From Promethearchaeota archaeon (GTDB lineage: Archaea; Asgardarchaeota; Lokiarchaeia; Sigyniarchaeales; SOKP01): a stretch of DNA of 42,852 nt. Shown piece after piece: positions 1,352-7,729 of the stretch. Numbering within the stretch: position 1 is the stretch's first letter; the number at the start of each line of letters is the position of its first letter. A program made the translations under genes and the position numbers. The notes under the pieces were generated by a model, which made no database searches, was not told the origin of the DNA, and worked only from the letters and a program-made list of their open reading frames with translations. The DNA lies in NCBI GenBank assembly GCA_048941265.1, contig JBHLNT010000019.1, positions 1-42,852 on the forward strand, in the 5' to 3' direction.

Positions 1352-1410
1352 TTAGGAGGCAGTCCTATTGTCATTCTTTCACTATCTTTTATTGAAAGAA
1401 ATCATTCAAA
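1352..1410 (-). promoter_or_regulatory. SECIS-like element copy 1 (3' of the GDCCVxC gene) plus downstream hairpin
   Basis: Minus strand reads UUUG-AAU-GA-U-UUCUUUCA-AUAAAAGAUAG-UGAAAGAA-U-GA-CAA-UAGGA-CUGCC-UCCUA and starts directly after the TAA at 1411-1413. Confidence 0.85.
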
Positions 1411-1629
1411 TTATTCATTCGCAATTTTTTCTTGTATATGTAGTCACGGCACGTCACCATAAGTACAAAAGATTCAATCTCACCCATGGGGATTTTCATG
1501 ACCCCATATCGGTTTATTGCATCCTTGACAAGTAGTCCACATTAGTCATTGTTCTTTAGGTATTTTAAGGGTATTTATATATCCGCAATGAGGACATGTA
1601 ACATTACTTTCTGACTTGAAATCAATCAT
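1411..1629 (-). CDS. GDCCVxC-type small (seleno)protein, 72 aa, 4 predicted selenocysteines
   Basis: Missed by the ORF track. MIDFKSESNVTCPHCGYINTLKIPKEQULMWTTCQGCNKPIWGHENPHGUDUIFCTYGDVPULHIQEKIANE*. TGA at 1546-1548, 1480-1482, 1474-1476, 1444-1446. Matches the family pattern TCPxCG...C...CxxC...GDCCVFCSYGxVPC with TGA mostly at Cys positions; SECIS follows. Confidence 0.88.
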
Positions 1630-1713
1630 GTTAATCTCTTATAATGGTTTATGAATCTATAAACACTATACATCAGATTTATTATTAAAAATTTAGTATT
1701 TTAATATATAAGA

Positions 1714-1773
1714 TTAGGAGGCGGTCCTAATGTCAATCTTTCACTAAGATTTTTTGAAAGACGTCATCCAAAT
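1714..1773 (-). promoter_or_regulatory. SECIS-like element copy 2 plus downstream hairpin
   Basis: UUUG-GAU-GA-C-GUCUUUCA-AAAAAUCUUAG-UGAAAGAU-U-GA-CAU-UAGGA-CCGCC-UCCUA, starting within a few nt of the TAA at 1775-1777. Confidence 0.85.
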
Positions 1774-1774
1774 T

Positions 1775-2248
1775 TTATTTTAAAAAATAATGAGCAAAAT
1801 ATTCGTCATCCTTTCCGTATTTTTTAAGTAGAATAGTTTTAAATTTTCCAATATCTAATCTGTTTTTCACTTTCTCTCATCAACATCCTGAATCGGGTTG
1901 TAAATCAATTACACTATCAGCATATAAATTGAAACCTATATTATCTCGGAGCGGCATAAACTTTCTTAAATTCCCTTCATCGTCCAGACCATAGGGCATC
2001 AGTCCTACATCGTCATATATTTTGTTTTCTTCAGGATCCCAAAATAGTTGCAGATAATTGTGAATATAACCATCGAATATCGGGAAAATTGATTCTTTGG
2101 GATTTTCAAATACAAATTTGTCAACCATCGCTAAAGCTTCAACAAATGTCGCATTATCTTTAACAAAAACAACGAAATCTTTGCCTTTTGATAATCCGCT
2201 TAACGTCAAGCTTATTTTGAGTGTAATCTTTTTAATTTTAATAATCAC
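1775..2248 (-). CDS. Uncharacterised selenoprotein B with CUU motif (possible beta-grasp N-domain plus helical tail)
   Basis: The ORF track stops at TGA 1880-1882. A second TGA follows (1877-1879), then the frame continues EKVKNRLDIGKFKTILLKKYGKDDEYFAHYFLK-TAA, clearly homologous to the read-through tail of the upstream paralogue. Start uncertain (TTG 2281, GTG 2248 or ATT 2236). Confidence 0.85.
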
Positions 2249-2312
2249 CTTTGGTATATTAAAATTTTGAATATTTACCAAATTATTTATAAGTTTTAAT
2301 TATAAAGAATTT

Positions 2313-2370
2313 CAGGACGCAATCCTATTGTCAACCTTTCACAAGCATTTATTGAAAGATGTCATTCAAA
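2313..2370 (-). promoter_or_regulatory. SECIS-like element copy 3 plus downstream hairpin
   Basis: UUUG-AAU-GA-C-AUCUUUCA-AUAAAUGCUUG-UGAAAGGU-U-GA-CAA-UAGGA-UUGCG-UCCUG, directly after the TAA at 2371-2373. Confidence 0.85.
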
Positions 2371-2811
2371 TTATTTTATTTTAAATTTAAAGTAATGAGC
2401 AAAAGTTTCATGGTCTTTTCCGTATTTTTTCATAACAATCCGTTTAAATGTACCAAAATCTAATCTTTCTCGCATAACATCAGCTCATCAATCAGCATGA
2501 ACGGATAAAGTGATATTACTATCGGGATATAACTTTACATCAGCATTTTCCATTATAGGCATAAACTCTCTATTTGGACCATACGCATTAACCGCGCAAT
2601 CTTCATAAATCTTATTTTTTTCTGGATTCCAAATTAATTGAAGATAACTATGAATCAATCCCTTATATAAAGGAAAAATAGACTTTTCTGGATTTTCATA
2701 TATCTTTTTATCTATCTCACTTAATGCGTCAACAATAGTGCCCTCTTCATTAATTTTAACTTCAAAATCGATACCATTTGTAAGCGGTTTTTCCGGTGCG
2801 ATTATGGTCAA
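2371..2811 (-). CDS. Uncharacterised selenoprotein A with UU motif; paralogue of 1775..2248
   Basis: Tandem TGA at 2488-2490 and 2485-2487, then ADVMRERLDFGTFKRIVMKKYGKDHETFAHYFKFKIK-TAA. The first TGA aligns without gaps to a Cys (TGT) in the paralogue. Start may be ATA 2826 after GGTGGTGA. Confidence 0.85.
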
Positions 2812-2874: not shown

Positions 2875-3264
2875 TTATTTAAGACCTTTATCCTTTAGGA
2901 GTTGAGGTAAATCCTTCTTTAATGCATAAGAAGTGGTATATTTTTTCTCTCCATCAACTAAAACACATTTGCTCCTTAAACCAAGCTGACGAGCCTCTTC
3001 AGAATTTAAGTTTTTTGTTTCATGTTTAATATACTTTATATAAGGTGTAAGTGCACTAAAAATAAGATTCATAAATTGCGACCACTCACAGGCGCATGCG
3101 TCGAGAGGCACATATATATCGACATTTAATTTATTTGGATCTAAAGGTTTTTTAATTACCTCATTAATTGAATCATTTTTGATATCAATGTCATCACTTG
3201 CACAGCAGGATGAGTTAGGTGTACAACAGGGGCTTTCAATTTTATTTACTTCTTTTTCTTCCAT
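2875..3264 (-). CDS. Cys-rich putative metal(loid)-binding protein, thioredoxin/ArsD-like
   Basis: N-terminal CC..CC (SPCCTPNSSCC), then VDIYVPLDACAC and a CVLVDGEKKY strand reminiscent of thioredoxin-fold/ArsD proteins; lies in an ars-type operon. Confidence 0.5.
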   Translation of the reverse strand: MEEKEVNKIESPCCTPNSSCCASDDIDIKNDSINEVIKKPLDPNKLNVDIYVPLDACACEWSQFMNLIFSALTPYIKYIKHETKNLNSEEARQLGLRSKCVLVDGEKKYTTSYALKKDLPQLLKDKGLK

Positions 3265-3325: not shown

Positions 3326-3637
3326 TTAACCACAGCATGAGTTTTGTTGTGAATTTTTTGCTCTTTGACGAGCATCCCACAAACAACCACATCCCTTTTG
3401 TTCCTGCATAATAATAGCTTGAGTAGGGCAATTTCTAAAACAAGCACTACATTCAGTGCAAAGTTCTGGATGCTTAATTTCATATTTACCAGAATTAATT
3501 TGTTGAGGTAGCCCGAAAGGGCATACTTCACCACATAATCCACATCCAATGCATGCAGAATCACTAATAAAAATACGAGGTAGTTCAATTGTTTGAGGAG
3601 TGCAACATGAACTCTCATTTGCTTTTAATTCTGTCAT
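3326..3637 (-). CDS. hgcB: HgcB-like 2[4Fe-4S] ferredoxin
   Basis: Two CxxCxxCxxxCP motifs (CIGCGLCGEVCP, CTECSACFRNCP), a GCGC segment and a C-terminal CC; directly downstream of an hgcA-like gene. Confidence 0.72.
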   Translation of the reverse strand: MTELKANESSCCTPQTIELPRIFISDSACIGCGLCGEVCPFGLPQQINSGKYEIKHPELCTECSACFRNCPTQAIIMQEQKGCGCLWDARQRAKNSQQNSCCG

Positions 3638-3678: not shown

Positions 3679-5328
3679 TTAAATTATATAAAATATTATT
3701 CCAAAAGCTAAAAAAATTAAGCTTATAATTAGTAAAATTTTATTAATTCGCGAAAATAAGAGGTATTCTGCCTGAATCTCTCTAGGACTTGTTGACATTG
3801 TATATCCGCTAAAAGACATCGTTGAAAAAAAGGCGATCCAAAAATAAAAGCTCAAGTTCCAGAGAATAAAGAGAAATGATTGATATAATATCCAAGAAAT
3901 CCCTCCAAAAATTATTACGTTTAAAGTTCCAAAGAATAATCCTTTAATAATAAATCTTCTCGTGAAGTTTGAAATAGGTAATAAAAGAGCAATAAGCATA
4001 TTTGTTAAAATAATCCAAATGAATATTTCACCTATCCACCATAGCTTATTTGACCAATTCAATGCTAGCAGTAAAAATACTATTCCTATTAAAGGCAAAA
4101 GAAAAATTTTTCGCAAAAGAAATGTTGTATGCGTTATTCCTGCCCGGATTCGATGGGATATCGAGAATTTGGCAAGTTTCATATTATCTGGTTTTTGTTT
4201 CGGTCTTTCTTTAATATACTTCGTAATATCCTTAGACCATATTGGACCATAGACAATTTTAAATGGAAATTCTTCAGAATTTTTCGGCAATTGTGGTATA
4301 GCAACACCACCGGCAGAGAGTTGGGGGAGTATTAAGATCTTCTTGCGTGTAAGATTGTGAATTCCAGTTGCCTCAACAGCTTCAAGTAATTGTTTATTAC
4401 CAAAATCGTTTCCACGAGCAGCACACCATACATTAATGCCATTAGAATCAACACATAAAACCCATGCATCAATTCCTTTTAGACTACGCATTACTTTTAT
4501 ATATGTATATTCATAATTCGCTGTAACTATTATCGGTGAATATTCATCAGGATGTCCTGATTGATAGATTCCTGGTTCTACCGGAACACGGTCAATCTGA
4601 CCCGTGAACAAACACCGATAAATCCTTAATTGAGAGCGAATCCCTTTAAATCTTTTAAGGTTGGGGCGATAATATCCTGGAGTATCACCATCCTTTACTA
4701 ATTCTATGGCTTGTATGGAACCATGTTTCCAAGATTTTTGGGCATTAATTTTAAAGCCGATTGGTTCGATATAATTAATGAACCATTTTACGAGAAAGGT
4801 ACTTTTTAATCGGAGTCTGTGTAATTTCTTTTTAAACCACCACCGCTTTAATTTAAAAATTAGCTTCCAAAAGCCCGAAGGAATAGTTTCTGCGGCTAAT
4901 ATTAATCGCCCATCTGGTTTCAGTGAGTTCCAGGCATTTCGTAAAAATATTTGTTGCTCAAGAGGTCTAAGTTCAGATAACATAAAAGTACTTACGACTA
5001 TATCCTTTGAGCTCTTTTCAATCGGAAAATCCTTAAGTGATCCTATTTGATATAAAAGATTGACATTTGCCTCAGATGGATAATTTTGCATGGCATAATT
5101 AATCATTTGGAAGTTCTTATCAATTGCAACCACATTATTTCCTTTTATTGCCATTTTCTTCGCAAGAGTACCAGTGCCACAGCCTACCTCTAGTATGGAT
5201 TGGGAATCCTGAATACAATCTAATACCCACTCTTGAACATCAAGATTTACACCCTTAGTAAGAGCTGTAAATTTTGAATCATAAGTTTCTGGCTCTTCCT
5301 CCAATTTTCGCATATAAGTTACGGCCAT
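3679..5328 (-). CDS. hgcA: Fusion of a class I SAM methyltransferase (CpaM-like) with an HgcA-like corrinoid protein and C-terminal TM helices
   Basis: LEVGCGTG SAM motif I; VEPGIY..G.PD..SPIIVTANY and GINVWCAARG cap-helix-like motif (canonical N(V/I)WCA(A/G)GK); LILPQLSAGGV; about 5 C-terminal TM segments. Confidence 0.75.
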   Translation of the reverse strand: MAVTYMRKLEEEPETYDSKFTALTKGVNLDVQEWVLDCIQDSQSILEVGCGTGTLAKKMAIKGNNVVAIDKNFQMINYAMQNYPSEANVNLLYQIGSLKDFPIEKSSKDIVVSTFMLSELRPLEQQIFLRNAWNSLKPDGRLILAAETIPSGFWKLIFKLKRWWFKKKLHRLRLKSTFLVKWFINYIEPIGFKINAQKSWKHGSIQAIELVKDGDTPGYYRPNLKRFKGIRSQLRIYRCLFTGQIDRVPVEPGIYQSGHPDEYSPIIVTANYEYTYIKVMRSLKGIDAWVLCVDSNGINVWCAARGNDFGNKQLLEAVEATGIHNLTRKKILILPQLSAGGVAIPQLPKNSEEFPFKIVYGPIWSKDITKYIKERPKQKPDNMKLAKFSISHRIRAGITHTTFLLRKIFLLPLIGIVFLLLALNWSNKLWWIGEIFIWIILTNMLIALLLPISNFTRRFIIKGLFFGTLNVIIFGGISWILYQSFLFILWNLSFYFWIAFFSTMSFSGYTMSTSPREIQAEYLLFSRINKILLIISLIFLAFGIIFYII

Positions 5329-5353: not shown

Positions 5354-6415
5354 TTATTCTGGGGGGTTCCAAAAGCCTCGCTTTTGAAGATATCTTCCTA
5401 AATAAACTATTGAAAGCATAACAGGAACTTCCCAGAACAATCCCATTGTAGTTCCTAATGCGGCAATCGATCCAATCCCATATATGGCAATCGCAGTAGC
5501 AATTGCAATTTCGAAATGACTTGAAGAGCCGATAATTACTGTGACAACAGCCTCTTTGTATTTAAGCTTAAAAAGCTTGGTAATAATCACATTATAGCTA
5601 ACAACGATTGCAAATCCAACCAGGAGAGGTATGCTAACTAAGAGTAAAAGTTCAGGATTTTTAAGTAAAACGTCTCCATTTAATGAAAAAAGGATAATCA
5701 ATGTTATTAGTAGTGCTACAACTGAAACTTTTCCTACCATAGGACGATAGGTGCCTTCAAACCATTCTTCCCCTTTTTTTTGTGTTAATAATCTTTTAGA
5801 TATTAATCCTAACGCTAAGGGGAGTCCTATAAAGAATATCAATGAAATTATTAATAAAGTTGTATCAATTGGAATATTTTGGATGCCAGTTAATAGAACA
5901 ACGATAGGAACATAAAGAAATATAATTGTTATGGTATTTAAACTGGTATTGGTGACATTTTGCTCTTGGTTTCCTCTAGCCATCCAACCCCATACAAGGA
6001 CCATTGCAGTACATGGTGAAGCAGAAAGTAAAATAATTGCTACTATTAACTGTTCATGACCAGCTAAAAAGATCCTTGCCATCATTAAACCAACAAAAGG
6101 GGCTACAATCCAATTAGAGATTAAGGTTAAAATTATCGGTTTTGGATTTTTCCCTAATTTTTTCAATTCAGATGCCTGGAGATTTAGCATTCCTGGATAC
6201 ATCATCAAGAATAGACATATCCCAATAGGAATAGAAATTTGGCCGATTGACCAGGAATTAATGGTTTCGCTAATTCCTGGAACAACTTGAGAAAGTACTA
6301 TTCCGGCAAGAATGCATAATGCCACCCATAGTGGTAAAAATTTACCAAAGAGACCTAATTCATGGGGTGTTCCTGCTTTATTTCTTATATCATTTTTAGC
6401 TTGTAGTTCACTCAT
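5354..6415 (-). CDS. acr3: Acr3-family arsenite efflux transporter
   Basis: PIGICLFLMMYP, NWIVAPF, ASPCTAMVLVW (conserved Cys), SSHFEIAIATA and EVPVML motifs; about 10 TM. Confidence 0.93.
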   Translation of the reverse strand: MSELQAKNDIRNKAGTPHELGLFGKFLPLWVALCILAGIVLSQVVPGISETINSWSIGQISIPIGICLFLMMYPGMLNLQASELKKLGKNPKPIILTLISNWIVAPFVGLMMARIFLAGHEQLIVAIILLSASPCTAMVLVWGWMARGNQEQNVTNTSLNTITIIFLYVPIVVLLTGIQNIPIDTTLLIISLIFFIGLPLALGLISKRLLTQKKGEEWFEGTYRPMVGKVSVVALLITLIILFSLNGDVLLKNPELLLLVSIPLLVGFAIVVSYNVIITKLFKLKYKEAVVTVIIGSSSHFEIAIATAIAIYGIGSIAALGTTMGLFWEVPVMLSIVYLGRYLQKRGFWNPPE

Positions 6416-6417
6416 TT

Positions 6418-7164
6418 TTAATTAACCTCATTTAATAGTAGTCTAGAAGTACTCATCCTTCTAGAATATTCATCTCTCATGTTATCGATGAATTGCCTTA
6501 AATTCTCATTAATTTGAGATAAATCTTCAGGAGGTATAGCATTTAGAAGTGATACTAGGTGATTGATTCCAGCAACTTCCTTATCGCATGTGTGACCAAA
6601 CCGTGGAGCGCGACATTCATGGCAGACACTTAAGGCAAAATTTTGAAGATTTTCTGTGTTAAAATCCTTATCTAAAAGAAATTTTGCCCCAGCTTCAGAG
6701 GAACCGCATAGTGAAGATCGCTTTACTATAATTTCTCTAAATTTACCATCTTCATCAATTTTAGGCTCATATATAGGTCTTCCGTAAAAAGTCGTAAATT
6801 CATCTACTTCTGGTATTCCCGTATCATTTTCTAGAGAACACATAGTTGGAGCATGAATGACTTGAGGATTTATTTTTCTCGCTTGAATTAATAGCCCTAC
6901 ACCGGGCAATACACCGAGTATTAACGGCTTCTGAAGTTCTGCTAGTTCTAAAATAAGATCAGGATGTCGAACGTAAGAAATGTATATATCGCAATCGGGG
7001 ATATTAAGTTTAAAATCATCATCCAGCATTAGATTAGAAGGTATTTCAGGAACCAGAATCCATACTACTTCAAAATTCTTCTTAATATTTTCAAAAGCTC
7101 TTTCACCGTACTTTCCATCTGACACTAATCCAACTTTTAAATTTTTAAATAAATGAGATGTCAT
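6418..7164 (-). CDS. DUF166-family protein
   Basis: GKYGERA, HPDL, CSL, RSSLCGS and CRA motifs typical of archaeal DUF166; first gene of the operon. Confidence 0.65.
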   Translation of the reverse strand: MTSHLFKNLKVGLVSDGKYGERAFENIKKNFEVVWILVPEIPSNLMLDDDFKLNIPDCDIYISYVRHPDLILELAELQKPLILGVLPGVGLLIQARKINPQVIHAPTMCSLENDTGIPEVDEFTTFYGRPIYEPKIDEDGKFREIIVKRSSLCGSSEAGAKFLLDKDFNTENLQNFALSVCHECRAPRFGHTCDKEVAGINHLVSLLNAIPPEDLSQINENLRQFIDNMRDEYSRRMSTSRLLLNEVN

Positions 7165-7327: not shown

Positions 7328-7729
7328 GTGATAATCATGAATACTAAACGTAAGGCTGAACTAATGGATATGTTATGCTCATGTAATGGTGTATGCAGTT
7401 CTAGTAAACATTTTGAGGATTTACAATTTATAGGGCAAGAATTAAAGTTTGATGAAAATTACGTAAATATGGCTAACTTTGGAACTGCGATTTCGTCTAT
7501 AGAACGTCTAATCATTCTCAATTCGTTAAAAGAAAAAGATAGATGCGTTTGTGAACTCGAAGCGATCCTTGATAAGTCACAATCTACAATTTCTCATCAT
7601 CTTAGGAAGCTAGAGAGAGCAAATTTGATAATGAGTTGGAAAAAGGGTAGTTATACTTATTACGGATTAAAAAAGGAACAATTACAGTCATTTTTAGAAA
7701 TATTGAATAAGGTATTTAATTCTGTTTGA
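7328..7729 (+). CDS. arsR: ArsR/SmtB metal(loid)-sensing repressor
   Basis: RCVCEL...SQSTISHHLRKL wHTH (ELCVCDL-like As(III) site) plus N-terminal CSCNGVC; divergent from acr3. Likely start is ATG 7337. Confidence 0.9.
   Translation: MIIMNTKRKAELMDMLCSCNGVCSSSKHFEDLQFIGQELKFDENYVNMANFGTAISSIERLIILNSLKEKDRCVCELEAILDKSQSTISHHLRKLERANLIMSWKKGSYTYYGLKKEQLQSFLEILNKVFNSV

Follow-up and report, generated by a model that had tools for sequence, protein, structure and literature searches.

We found that the window analysed here, a stretch of 42,852 nucleotides from a Promethearchaeota archaeon (GenBank JBHLNT010000019.1), carries on its minus strand a gene of the GDCCVxC family, and comparison with homologues confirmed it as a real gene encoding a 72-residue protein with four selenocysteine (Sec, U) residues. 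We consider it rather probable that the product is a real selenoprotein in which one SECIS element decodes four UGA codons and which likely captures soft metals with very high affinity and passes them on. Judging from its gene context, its most likely task would be to bind or carry mercury and arsenic very tightly.

The gene and its place in the GDCCVxC family

A preliminary description of the window, made from its nucleotide sequence, had proposed a 72-codon frame with in-frame TGAs at codons 28, 50, 52 and 62, closed by TAA, and nine Cys/Sec residues, namely the knuckles C12/C15 and C34/C37 together with C55, U28, U50, U52 and U62. Both statements held, minus strand 1629..1411 translating to MIDFKSESNVTCPHCGYINTLKIPKEQULMWTTCQGCNKPIWGHENPHGUDUIFCTYGDVPULHIQEKIANE* (Table 1). 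All four UGAs lie inside 35 codons, and the U62 codon is 41 nt upstream of the AUGA of the SECIS element. A bare ORF with four TGAs is not beyond chance, since 242 of the 3619 ATG..TAA/TAG frames of 60-100 codons in this A+T-rich genome contain at least four in-frame TGAs. Such frequencies could suggest that no selenoprotein is made, the frame being a pseudogene or chance ORF ending at codon 28, or TGA being read as Trp or another residue. The same could be said of the Trp present at the four TGA sites in the sole close protein (P0002) found in a protein database of 5.8 billion sequences, and likewise in five representatives in a library of 1.84 billion sequences. What is beyond chance is the match to NF041374, the fixed TGA positions, the excess of dS over dN and the conserved hairpin in the 3' UTR.

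The search against the family model that had been recommended, with U read as C, gave a score of 50.7 bits with NF041374 (cut-off 40), the match spanning positions 1-58 of the 58-position model. In six-frame searches the window gene, with its TGAs left as stops, scored 36.9 bits, and the four-Sec members without U-to-C substitution scored 30-38 bits, all under the NF041374 cut-off. We aligned 11 archaeal four-Sec and 112 bacterial sequences; neither outcome named beforehand as refuting the proposal, no match to the family model or homologues without Cys/Sec at the four positions, was obtained. U28, U52 and U62 occupy family Cys columns, as had been noticed (107, 111 and 111 of the 112 bacterial members have Cys there; Table 1), and none of these three columns has Trp in any of the 112. 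The interpretation of GUDUIFC as the counterpart of GDCCVFC, with UxU replacing the vicinal CC, was also correct by this alignment. Specifically, the literal G-D-C-C-V-x-C is absent and G-U-D-U-I-F-C is common to all 11 archaeal four-Sec sequences; the first Cys of the family CC (104/112 bacterial members) falls on the variable residue 51; the U50 column is without Cys in bacterial members, its Sec being specific to the archaeal four-Sec clade; and C55, corresponding to the last Cys of the signature, stays Cys. The two knuckles and P61 are invariant in the alignment, the C-terminal P-C motif is present as P-U, and the four-Sec clade has a three-residue insertion, N-x-H (N in 11/11, H in 10/11). 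Because the literal signature is lacking, we filed the gene as a divergent subfamily; by its sequence, the four-Sec form is a new variant of the known GDCCVxC family.

A survey of homologues, likewise proposed beforehand, showed that in related archaea all four positions remain TGA, and that at three of them other families of the phylum and bacteria have Cys. Across 19 related genomes, which together contain 20 copies of the gene, the four TGAs occupy identical codons, and a single copy has a fifth (5 Sec in 74 residues, genome G047). A homologue was present in 12 of 61 relatives, the source genome included, with TGA at the four positions in each of the 12, and a sample of 301 genomes from the phylum yielded 7 further genomes with the four-TGA gene. 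The ordinary all-Cys GDCCVxC form occurs in other archaeal families of that phylum, and no forms with one to three Sec were seen among the 61 relatives and the 301-genome sample. A two-TGA copy in G253, considered as an intermediate, was set aside for its degenerate N-terminus and its TGAs away from the Cys columns. Nine sequences, in which the TGAs hold identical codon indices, were compared over 55 codons that include all four of them; dN was lower than dS in 36/36 pairs (dN/dS about 0.1-0.45), indicating purifying selection. Although dS was often >1 and synonymous sites were saturated, the TGAs were fixed, and the residues after each TGA are conserved. A pseudogene or chance ORF is difficult to reconcile with TGAs fixed in 19 genomes at saturated synonymous sites and followed by conserved residues, and a Trp reading with three TGA columns where 107-111 of the 112 bacterial homologues have Cys and none has Trp.

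Table 1. Features of the window at the four-Sec gene and its gene cluster (positions are those of the window)
Feature	Position	Strand	Remarks
Four-Sec GDCCVxC-family gene, 72 aa	1411..1629	-	ATG 1629..1627, TAA 1413..1411; translation with TGA=U
UGA codon 28 (U28)	1546..1548	-	family Cys column, Cys in 107/112 bacterial members
UGA codon 50 (U50), first Sec of UxU	1480..1482	-	Asp in 86/112 bacterial members; TGA in 11/11 archaeal
UGA codon 52 (U52)	1474..1476	-	second Cys of family CC, Cys in 111/112
UGA codon 62 (U62), P-U motif	1444..1446	-	family P-C, Cys in 111/112
Loki-type SECIS-like element, 3' UTR of four-Sec gene	1354..1410	-	features match lokiSECIS as described in PMC4989117
Parts of this element	AUGA 1405..1402; 9-position stem 1401..1393 with 1381..1373; loop 1392..1382; GA 1372..1371	-	
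UU1, 168 aa, GC-U134-U135 (two adjacent TGA)	1775..2281	-	post-TGA sequence conserved in 15/15 aligned homologues
SECIS-like element of UU1	1716..1773	-	AUGA 1767..1764; 58.4 bits
UU2, UU1 paralogue with U108-U109	2371..2811	-	
SECIS-like element of UU2	2314..2371	-	AUGA 2365..2362; 59.3 bits
Cys-rich protein, 129 aa, CC..CC and CAC motifs	2875..3264	-	
HgcB-like 2x[4Fe-4S] ferredoxin, CC motifs near both ends	3326..3637	-	HgcB 53.5 bits, cut-off 99
CpaM-like SAM methyltransferase + HgcA-like corrinoid membrane protein fusion	3679..5328	-	CdhD, Methyltransf_25 matches
ACR3-family arsenite efflux transporter	5354..6415	-	282.4 bits, cut-off 282.8
DUF166 protein	6418..7164	-	92.1 bits
ArsR/SmtB metalloregulator, divergent	7328..7729	+	70.2 bits, cut-off 55

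The SECIS element and Sec machinery

The SECIS hairpin begins 5 nt past the stop codon of the four-Sec gene and reads AUGA / UUUCUUUCA / AUAAAAGAUAG / UGAAAGAAU / GA, with standard pairs at 8 of the 9 stem positions and an A-rich apical loop of 11 nt ending in G; the GA is followed by a further conserved hairpin region, AGGACUGCCUCCU, reaching to 1354. The feature set of the lokiSECIS, or Asgard eSECIS-like type I, element (AUGA, ~9-bp stem, 11-nt A-rich loop, terminal G, GA) is present in full, as these features are given in the portions of PMC4989117 and PMC11227280 that we drew on. There are three near-identical elements in the window, each behind a TGA-containing gene, and a 27-nt pattern allowing up to three mismatches had only three matches in the 5-Mb genome, which are the same three elements. 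In the SECIS alignment 93.7% of the cells pair, compensatory changes occur in 6 of 9 pairs, and such pairing was reached by none of 500 shuffles. A covariance model, R1, built only from SECIS elements of this kind, located just two more sites among the 150 scored of 7467 first-look candidates in the genome, both directly behind Sec-carrying HdrA-VhuD genes, and four elements outside its training set scored 46-51 bits at the expected place. Elements were weak for the copies in G047, G055 and G048, detected by pattern only for that in G050, and for those in G037 and G044 neither the strict pattern nor the model located one where it was expected. An Rfam scan of the entire window at the gathering threshold gave no match, SECIS families included.

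Genome-wide reassignment of TGA was rejected because TGA is an ordinary stop codon here, ending 406 of the 3025 ORFs of at least 200 aa. The genome encodes SelB (246.2 bits, cut-off 242.25), a SelD that itself contains Sec, and a SepSecS fragment (196.5 bits) at a contig end. No tRNA-Sec was detected in the assembly (91% complete, 361 contigs), three sub-threshold RF01852 matches proving to be one ordinary tRNA-Arg and intron-containing tRNAs; as ARAGORN detected only 11 tRNAs in the whole assembly, we score tRNA-Sec as not found rather than absent. PSTK was not found in the assembly either, where only weak P-loop matches were obtained. The failure to find tRNA-Sec could favour a product other than a selenoprotein, but the stop function of TGA, the presence of SelB, Sec-containing SelD and SepSecS, and a SECIS of the HdrA-VhuD class behind the gene argue against it, and together with the homologue data they leave this explanation very improbable. 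The Loki-type (eukaryote-like) SECIS in the mRNA would instead drive Sec insertion at all four UGA codons.

Gene neighbourhoods and a proposed role in metal handling

The four-Sec gene is the last of a run of same-strand genes that includes acr3 and hgcAB-like genes, and the divergent arsR flanks this run. The preliminary description had placed it next to hgcAB-like genes; these are indeed on the same strand, 1.7-3.7 kb upstream, but three genes lie between and the HgcA and HgcB scores are under the curated cut-offs. Specifically, the fusion gene at 3679..5328 scored 171.9 with HgcA (cut-off 275), 173.9 with the HgcAB-like model (285) and 138.8 with CpaM (180). UU1 and UU2 form an unannotated double-Sec family, here termed GCUU, found in 50 of the 61 relatives. 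The Cys-rich product of 2875..3264 had no Pfam or NCBIfam match and is homologous to a C-terminal extension fused to ArsM in G021 (BLASTP 57% identity over 122 aa, E 3e-46). No merA over the cut-off was detected in the genome (91% complete; best score 303 bits against 454), and a mercury partner is therefore missing here.

In the archaeal four-Sec clade, merA and/or merB adjoin 6 of 19 loci. For example, merA (TIGR02053, 481-540 bits, cut-off 454) is directly downstream in G018, G270, G261 and G211, and a copy in G027, cut by the end of the locus, scored 424 bits. The gene order in G211 is thioredoxin, four-Sec gene, merB, merA, with a thioredoxin-fold gene directly upstream of the four-Sec gene in both G211 loci. 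In G005 and G021 the order is arsM, UU gene, four-Sec gene, and HMA/YHS P-type ATPases adjoin the four-Sec gene in G267 and G292. Eight of the 19 archaeal loci are without a recognisable metal gene in the DNA available, seven of these eight having been judged by eye within +-1.5 kb only.

The preliminary description had also placed the family frequently near mercury-resistance genes in bacteria. This was only partly borne out: MerC fusions exist, and MerTP was next door in 4 of 37 sampled loci, a fifth having sub-threshold MerR/MerB/MerA-like genes. A heavy-metal or metalloid gene of any kind adjoins 20 of these 37 loci, the neighbours of bacterial members being mostly efflux pumps and metal regulators. 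A fusion to MerC scores over the Pfam threshold and MerT-like fusions under it, and a C-terminal CC pair is present in 34 of the best 150 matches. The mercury link is thus stronger in the archaeal four-Sec clade (6/19) than among the bacterial loci, and gene context as a whole points to soft metals.

The AF2 model of the four-Sec protein (pLDDT 94) has four strands flanking the two knuckles and two short helices. Structure matches were weak and zinc-ribbon-like: Foldseek gave no match at E<=0.001 (eL43 at E 0.29), the best VIA-align match was a weak one to an NZF finger (Z 3.6, rmsd 2.3 A, 43 residues aligned), and a profile search against PDB sequences found only one zinc ribbon, RNA polymerase II subunit 9 (E 1e-4). 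No HMA, MerP or CopZ model was among the Pfam/NCBIfam matches of the protein at E<=1.

From these data we propose that C12, C15, C34 and C37 form a structural ribbon, probably around zinc, and that the conserved family Cys other than the knuckles and C55 became Sec (U28, U50/U52 and U62), giving a predicted cluster of four selenolates and one thiolate. The product, presumably cytoplasmic since it has no recognisable signal peptide, would capture Hg(II), organomercury and As(III) with very high affinity and hand them off. Its partners in relatives may be MerB and MerA, in a role akin to that of NmerA or MerP in bacteria, and in the source genome the arsR/acr3/hgcAB-like/UU gene cluster. More broadly, and only tentatively, the order of archaea to which the window gene belongs may run its mercury and arsenic handling on encoded selenium, with the four-Sec protein as a "claw" to which transporters or MerB deliver Hg(II) or As(III) and which passes it to MerA or methyltransferases, and the GCUU protein as a second member of the relay.

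Against a metal carrier stand the eight loci without a metal gene and the lack of a merA over the cut-off in the source genome, and a site of five Cys/Sec ligands would suit an Fe-S cluster or redox chemistry just as well. The protein might then cycle its Se4S site between selenol and selenenylsulfide/diselenide, or ligate Fe-S, passing electrons to, or re-reducing, MerB, ArsM, ArsC-like proteins or the HgcAB-like corrinoid system. Several observations are consistent with such a role: the thioredoxin-fold gene upstream in both G211 loci, the need of the ferredoxin and corrinoid protein of the window cluster for reductants, the predominance of redox enzymes among known selenoproteins (PMC13188914, in the text available) and the Sec inside Fe-S motifs of Loki HdrA (PMC4989117, in the section at hand). 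However, the partners fused to bacterial members are mercury transporters (MerC over threshold, MerT-like under it) and not redox enzymes, the bacterial neighbours are mostly efflux pumps and metal regulators, and the model shows a zinc-ribbon-like fold, with two short helices, rather than a thioredoxin-like one, so that we regard a redox protein as somewhat unlikely. The protein may also be a selenium store or donor, a miniature SelenoP, for instance one through which Hg is precipitated as HgSe, rather than a reusable ligand set. Its Sec content (four among 72 residues, and five among 74 in G047) and the presence of the UU genes, likewise of a multi-Sec family, within its cluster would suit this role, but the Sec occupy strictly fixed positions that match those where an all-Cys family has conserved Cys ligands, which argues for a structured site and not storage, and the neighbourhoods examined showed neither a Sec lyase nor a gene of selenium metabolism; we consider a store quite improbable.

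With metal capture and hand-off as the preferred role, selenium-mercury antagonism, long known, is given form in one gene inside merB-merA strings. Because the conserved Cys outside the ribbon, C55 excepted, appear as Sec and the gene lies in such strings, Sec-versus-Cys affinity and transfer should be directly measurable, with the all-Cys relatives from sister families as natural controls. Small as it is, the gene also offers a natural system in which to study how a eukaryote-like SECIS in archaea decodes several Sec processively. Standard gene callers drop genes of this type or read TGA as Trp, and the metal-resistance inventories of these archaea are therefore incomplete; P0002 is such a public gene call with TGA read as Trp. 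If mercury and arsenic handling does run on selenium, the four-Sec protein would be a selenoprotein component of a mer operon, perhaps the most Sec-dense prokaryotic protein described, and a test bed for one SECIS, without known SBP2, driving four or five close Sec insertions, the last ~41 nt from the hairpin.

Comparison with known systems

The NmerA domain of MerA and MerP are HMA-fold proteins that bind Hg(II) and hand it off in bacterial mer operons. The four-Sec protein resembles them in being small, soluble and Cys-rich, with a gene that immediately precedes merA or neighbours merB, and its bacterial GDCCVxC homologues are fused to MerC-/MerT-like transporters as MerP-like HMA domains are in MerTP. 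It differs in having no HMA domain, a predicted zinc ribbon, and selenolates in place of the GMTCxxC thiolate pair, and the comparison would be a functional analogy only.

Among multi-Sec proteins, vertebrate selenoprotein P is secreted, has many Sec and two SECIS elements, transports selenium and has affinity for mercury; HdrA is much larger than 72 aa. Selenoprotein P, which PMC4989117 also mentions, shares with the four-Sec protein many Sec per polypeptide and the need for processive UGA recoding, but is eukaryotic and unrelated in sequence and fold. Closer in decoding are the Lokiarchaeota multi-Sec proteins HdrA (up to four Sec), VhuD and PrxL.1, with one lokiSECIS each according to PMC4989117: several UGAs are served by a single 3' SECIS of the same AUGA/stem/loop/GA layout, but the protein family is another, and four Sec in 72 aa are a much greater density than up to four in HdrA.

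The most complete published survey of Asgard selenoproteins, covering >400 genomes, lists seven families (PMC11227280, as far as its text was available); the four-Sec GDCCVxC form is not among these seven and goes unmentioned in one supplementary text. Our literature search found no description of a Sec-rich or metal-binding selenoprotein of GDCCVxC type in Asgard, and none by the name GDCCVxC. The window would thus widen the archaeal selenoproteome by two families, four-Sec GDCCVxC (19 genomes) and GCUU (50/61 relatives).

Bacterial metal-related selenoproteins include NF041115 UxxU, MbdU, a MerT/CopZ fusion, SaoL/SaoB/SaoC and a Sec-containing HgcA (PMC13188914; Haft & Gwadz, 10.1101/2022.07.06.499078; both as excerpted). 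These resemble the four-Sec protein in Sec as a proposed soft-metal ligand, in Hg, As or organometallic gene sets and in CU, UxxU and UU motifs; they differ in being bacterial with one to three Sec, the four-Sec protein being encoded in archaeal merB-merA strings. By the excerpt of the 2022 preprint, its authors' catalogue then held no selenoprotein for mercury resistance.

The nearest known system is the family itself, NF041374 GDCCVxC "(seleno)protein", which corresponds to "hypothetical protein GOS_B" of Zhang & Gladyshev 2008 (PMC2398784; PMC13188914; in the passages available). The domain, the two CxxC knuckles, the Cys/Sec columns 28, 52, 55 and 62 and the size are shared, and some bacterial members are selenoproteins. 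The published bacterial selenoprotein members, as those passages describe them, have one Sec, a bacterial SECIS within the ORF and no assigned function, whereas the archaeal form has four Sec (five in G047), a SECIS in the 3' UTR, the N-x-H insertion and UxU.

Conservation of the four-Sec frame

Read with TGA as Sec (U), the four-Sec gene encodes 72 residues on the minus strand and closes with TAA, with Sec at U28, U50, U52 and U62, two CxxC knuckles (C12/C15 and C34/C37) and an additional cysteine, C55; in translation, the plus strand across the same interval is blocked by stops. Such frames are not rare in this A+T-rich genome, in which 242 of the 3619 ATG-to-TAA/TAG frames of 60-100 codons contain at least four TGAs, so the case for the gene rests on evidence other than the ORF. 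We found a homologue in 12 of 61 relatives (the genome itself counted), all 12 with TGA at the four positions, and a family search across 301 genomes from the phylum brought in seven further genomes carrying the four-TGA form (two copies in one of these). The total is 20 copies in 19 genomes, all belonging to f1 and f2, two families of the window's order. Among nine sequences compared over 55 codons covering all four TGAs, dN was lower than dS in 36 of 36 pairs (for example, 0.15 versus 1.21) and the TGA positions were unmoved. General reassignment of TGA is excluded, since TGA serves as an ordinary stop in this genome, closing 406 of 3025 ORFs of at least 200 aa. We consider this very probably a genuine selenoprotein gene with four Sec, and the four Sec proposed in the preliminary description are kept in every homologue from the related archaea.

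One copy (L022, G047:C204, locus 1474-1698, minus strand) has a fifth TGA in the second knuckle, where it replaces the final Cys (C-G-G-U), a variant indicating that Sec is possible even at a presumed zinc ligand. In public gene calls of the protein (P0002, P0003 and P0005-P0008), the four TGA positions are always given as Trp; these entries are mistranslations, apparently made by callers that read short contigs with TGA as Trp.

Sec insertion elements and decoding machinery

The stop codon of the four-Sec gene is followed after 5 nt by a SECIS, the hairpin directing Sec insertion, consisting of AUGA, a nine-position stem, the 11-nt loop AUAAAAGAUAG, the return strand and GA. Near-identical elements stand behind each of two neighbouring TGA-containing genes, UU1 and UU2. 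This anatomy matches that of the lokiSECIS as described by Mariotti et al. (PMC4989117), namely AUGA, a 9-bp stem, an 11-nt loop starting with adenines, a final G and then GA, and also fits the type I eSECIS-like form described by Huang et al. (PMC11227280). A 27-nt SECIS pattern allowing up to three mismatches matched the 5-Mb genome three times, at these three elements only. In a comparison of seven elements drawn from five genomes, pairing held in 93.7% of cells and two-sided changes occurred at six of the nine pairs, a result matched by none of 500 shuffles. When a covariance model built from those seven elements alone was run over the whole genome, the 150 candidates scored (of 7467 at first look) yielded the three window elements and two other sites only (42.4 and 33.9 bits), both directly behind HdrA-VhuD gene pairs in which VhuD carries Sec. 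Four elements outside the training set, behind four other four-Sec genes, scored 46-51 bits. By pattern or model, an element was present at the expected place for most relatives, weakly so for G047, G055 and G048, and was not seen behind the G037 and G044 copies; Rfam gave no match to the element. In addition, each SECIS core is followed closely on its 3' side by a second conserved segment, AGGAC(U/C)GCCUCCU (the third element has AGGAUUGCGUCCU), and a similar one stands behind the G005 element; the segment is a candidate for an extended lower stem, a protein site or a terminator.

The genome encodes SelB above cut-off and a Sec-containing SelD, together with a fragment of SepSecS at the end of one contig; searches of the assembly (91% complete, 361 contigs) recovered neither tRNA-Sec nor PSTK. 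ARAGORN returned 11 tRNA genes only from the 5.0 Mb, and several tRNAs of this genome have long introns, so tRNA inventories of this assembly, tRNA-Sec included, are unreliable. In SelD (L023, G000:C297), Sec lies within a G-U-S-C-K motif, and the TGA stop is followed a few nucleotides later by an AUGA...AUAAA...UGA hairpin; one UGA of this mRNA is thus decoded, and the second, beside the SECIS, presumably terminates. The G005 four-Sec gene seems likewise to stop at a TGA right 5' of its SECIS.

UU1 and UU2 are paralogous, each reading through two adjacent TGAs (motif G-C-U-U or D-U-U) into a conserved C-terminal tail of 33-37 residues. The family is present in 50 of 61 relatives, nearly always with two TGAs, and has no Pfam or NCBIfam match; its AlphaFold2 model (pLDDT 82) gave weak, beta-grasp-like structural matches (TM ~0.3). 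The UU genes appear to constitute an unannotated, widespread double-Sec family.

Family membership, fold and distribution

With U read as C, the four-Sec protein matched the full 58-position NCBIfam model NF041374, 'GDCCVxC domain-containing (seleno)protein', at 50.7 bits (cut-off 40), in agreement with the family first assigned from the sequence; Pfam gave sub-threshold zinc-ribbon matches only. A profile of 11 archaeal sequences retrieved 1084 proteins at E<=0.001 from 1.84 billion representatives. Among the best 150 of these, 119 have GxCC[VI]xC, 26 other variants and five GWxW, the last being the archaeal four-Sec form called with TGA as Trp, and 34 have a CC pair at the C-terminal end. 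In an alignment of the 11 archaeal with 112 bacterial sequences, the bacterial members have Cys at the U28, U52 and U62 columns (107, 111 and 111 of 112, respectively), as expected from the earlier claim that three Sec match family Cys positions. The U50 column is Asp in 86 of the 112, the leading Cys of the family's CC (104/112 bacterial) aligns with the variable residue 51 of the archaeal form, and the archaeal form has a three-residue insertion, N-x-H, immediately N-terminal of the motif. The preliminary description, in which GDCCVFC becomes GUDUIFC and the vicinal CC becomes UxU, was therefore exact.

In the AlphaFold2 model (123-sequence alignment; pLDDT 94, pTM 0.81), the two knuckles are flanked by four short strands in a zinc-ribbon-like manner, H44, N46, H48, U50 and U52 lie on one loop, and C55, on helix 53-57, is followed by P61-U62 and a last helix. 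As the conserved non-ribbon positions, U28, U50, U52, C55 and U62 may form one site. No solved relative emerged from the fold searches: Foldseek gave no structural match at E<=0.001, the best VIA-align match, an NZF zinc finger, was weak (Z 3.6 over 43 aligned residues, rmsd 2.3 A), and a profile search of PDB sequences returned the RNA polymerase II subunit 9 zinc ribbon alone (E 1e-4).

The canonical all-Cys GDCCVFC form occurs in families f10, f27 and f32 of the same phylum (32 intact, stop-free matches, 72-95 bits), within the 301-genome search the window's order has only the four-Sec form, none of 14 control genomes has a family member, and a species-representative collection of bacteria contains at least 600 matching stretches. 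Judged from this sequence distribution, the four-Sec form is a lineage-specific derivative of a family widespread in bacteria. A two-TGA copy (L146, G253:C22:9644-9796) was ruled out as an intermediate; it has a scrambled N-terminus and two TGAs off the Cys columns, in a family otherwise all-Cys, and is probably a decaying gene.

Gene neighbourhood and predicted role

Features of the minus-strand run and its surroundings
Feature	Position	Strand	Remark
ArsR-family regulator, divergent	7328..7729	+	far end of run
DUF166	7164..6418	-	first of minus-strand run
ACR3 arsenite pump	6415..5354	-
CpaM-like SAM methyltransferase fused to HgcA-like corrinoid membrane protein	5328..3679	-	below HgcA and CpaM cut-offs
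HgcB-like ferredoxin, CC motifs near both ends	3637..3326	-	below HgcB cut-off
Cys-rich 129-aa protein, CC..CC and CAC motifs	3264..2875	-	no family match
UU2	2811..2371	-	own SECIS
UU1	2281..1775	-	own SECIS
Four-Sec gene	1629..1411	-	last of co-directional run
Segments 3' of SECIS cores	1354-1366, 1716-1728, 2314-2326	-	CCUCC string; small hairpin possible

The minus-strand run may form one ArsR-controlled operon. Because the HgcA, HgcB and CpaM scores all fall under curated cut-offs, we treat these genes as paralogues ('hgcAB-like') rather than demonstrated mercury methylation genes; the fusion protein and ferredoxin may represent a corrinoid-dependent metal(loid) methylation system, not mercury methylation proper. 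The 129-aa protein shares 57% identity across 122 aa with a C-terminal extension of the G021 ArsM, where the same domain is fused, and this ties the local cluster to modules for arsenite methylation. In G005 and G021 the order is arsM, a UU gene and the four-Sec gene.

In four genomes (G018, G270, G261 and G211), merA above the equivalog cut-off lies directly downstream of the four-Sec gene on the same strand; G027 has a merA copy at 424 bits, cut by the locus end, and two G211 loci have thioredoxin, the four-Sec gene and merB in order, with merA next in one. Mercury genes thus adjoin 6 of 19 four-Sec loci. An HMA/YHS P-type ATPase gene adjoins in G267 and G292, and no metal gene was found near the four-Sec gene in 8 of 19 loci (seven by eye within +-1.5 kb, one by Pfam). 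The G211 MerB homologue (L155, L156) scored best with the MerB-like SaoL model, below its cut-off, and carries a LexA-like DNA-binding segment at its N-terminus in L156, where it may be a regulator-lyase fusion.

For bacteria, the best 80 included 53 full-length loci, of which the first 37 were used, with at most four neighbour ORFs each (148 ORFs). A gene for heavy-metal or metalloid handling adjoins 20 of these 37 loci, which include close relatives and are not independent, and 17 have none. The neighbours comprise MerTP above cut-off (4), CusA/CzcA (5), a P-type ATPase (1), CDF (2, with ZupT below threshold as well in one), ArsC/ArsK or ArsR/ACR3 (2), multicopper oxidases (2), MerR-family regulators (2), a MerR/MerB-like/MerA-like set (1) and an SaoE-like efflux protein (1). 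In addition, one bacterial member is fused to MerC (above the Pfam threshold) and two to sub-threshold MerT-like segments.

The GDCCVxC family is predicted to be a cytoplasmic domain that binds soft metals or hands them on, and the archaeal clade has selenol for thiol at every conserved non-ribbon position but one. Selenolates are deprotonated at neutral pH and have a higher affinity than thiolates for Hg(II), MeHg+ and As(III). This exchange favours a role in metal capture and transfer, which we predict for the four-Sec protein with moderate confidence. A redox or Fe-S role, the main alternative, would agree with the thioredoxin gene adjoining in G211 and with the general habit of selenoproteins, and we consider it rather unlikely.

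The family, known as GOS_B, was described from 11 sequences with Sec and 125 with Cys, with no function assigned (PMC2398784), and a 2026 review gives it one Sec in a table and lists bacterial proteins for mercuric transport and metal binding that are predicted to contain Sec (PMC13188914). Haft and Gwadz stated in 2022 that no selenoprotein for mercury resistance was present in their catalogue (bioRxiv 10.1101/2022.07.06.499078). The Asgard selenoproteome paper (PMC11227280) reports seven other families, and its supplementary text contains no GOS_B, GDCC or mercur term. The GDCCVxC family and the existence of Sec members were thus already known; we found no account in the literature searched of a four-Sec form, the UxU re-spacing, an archaeal member or a place in mer gene strings.
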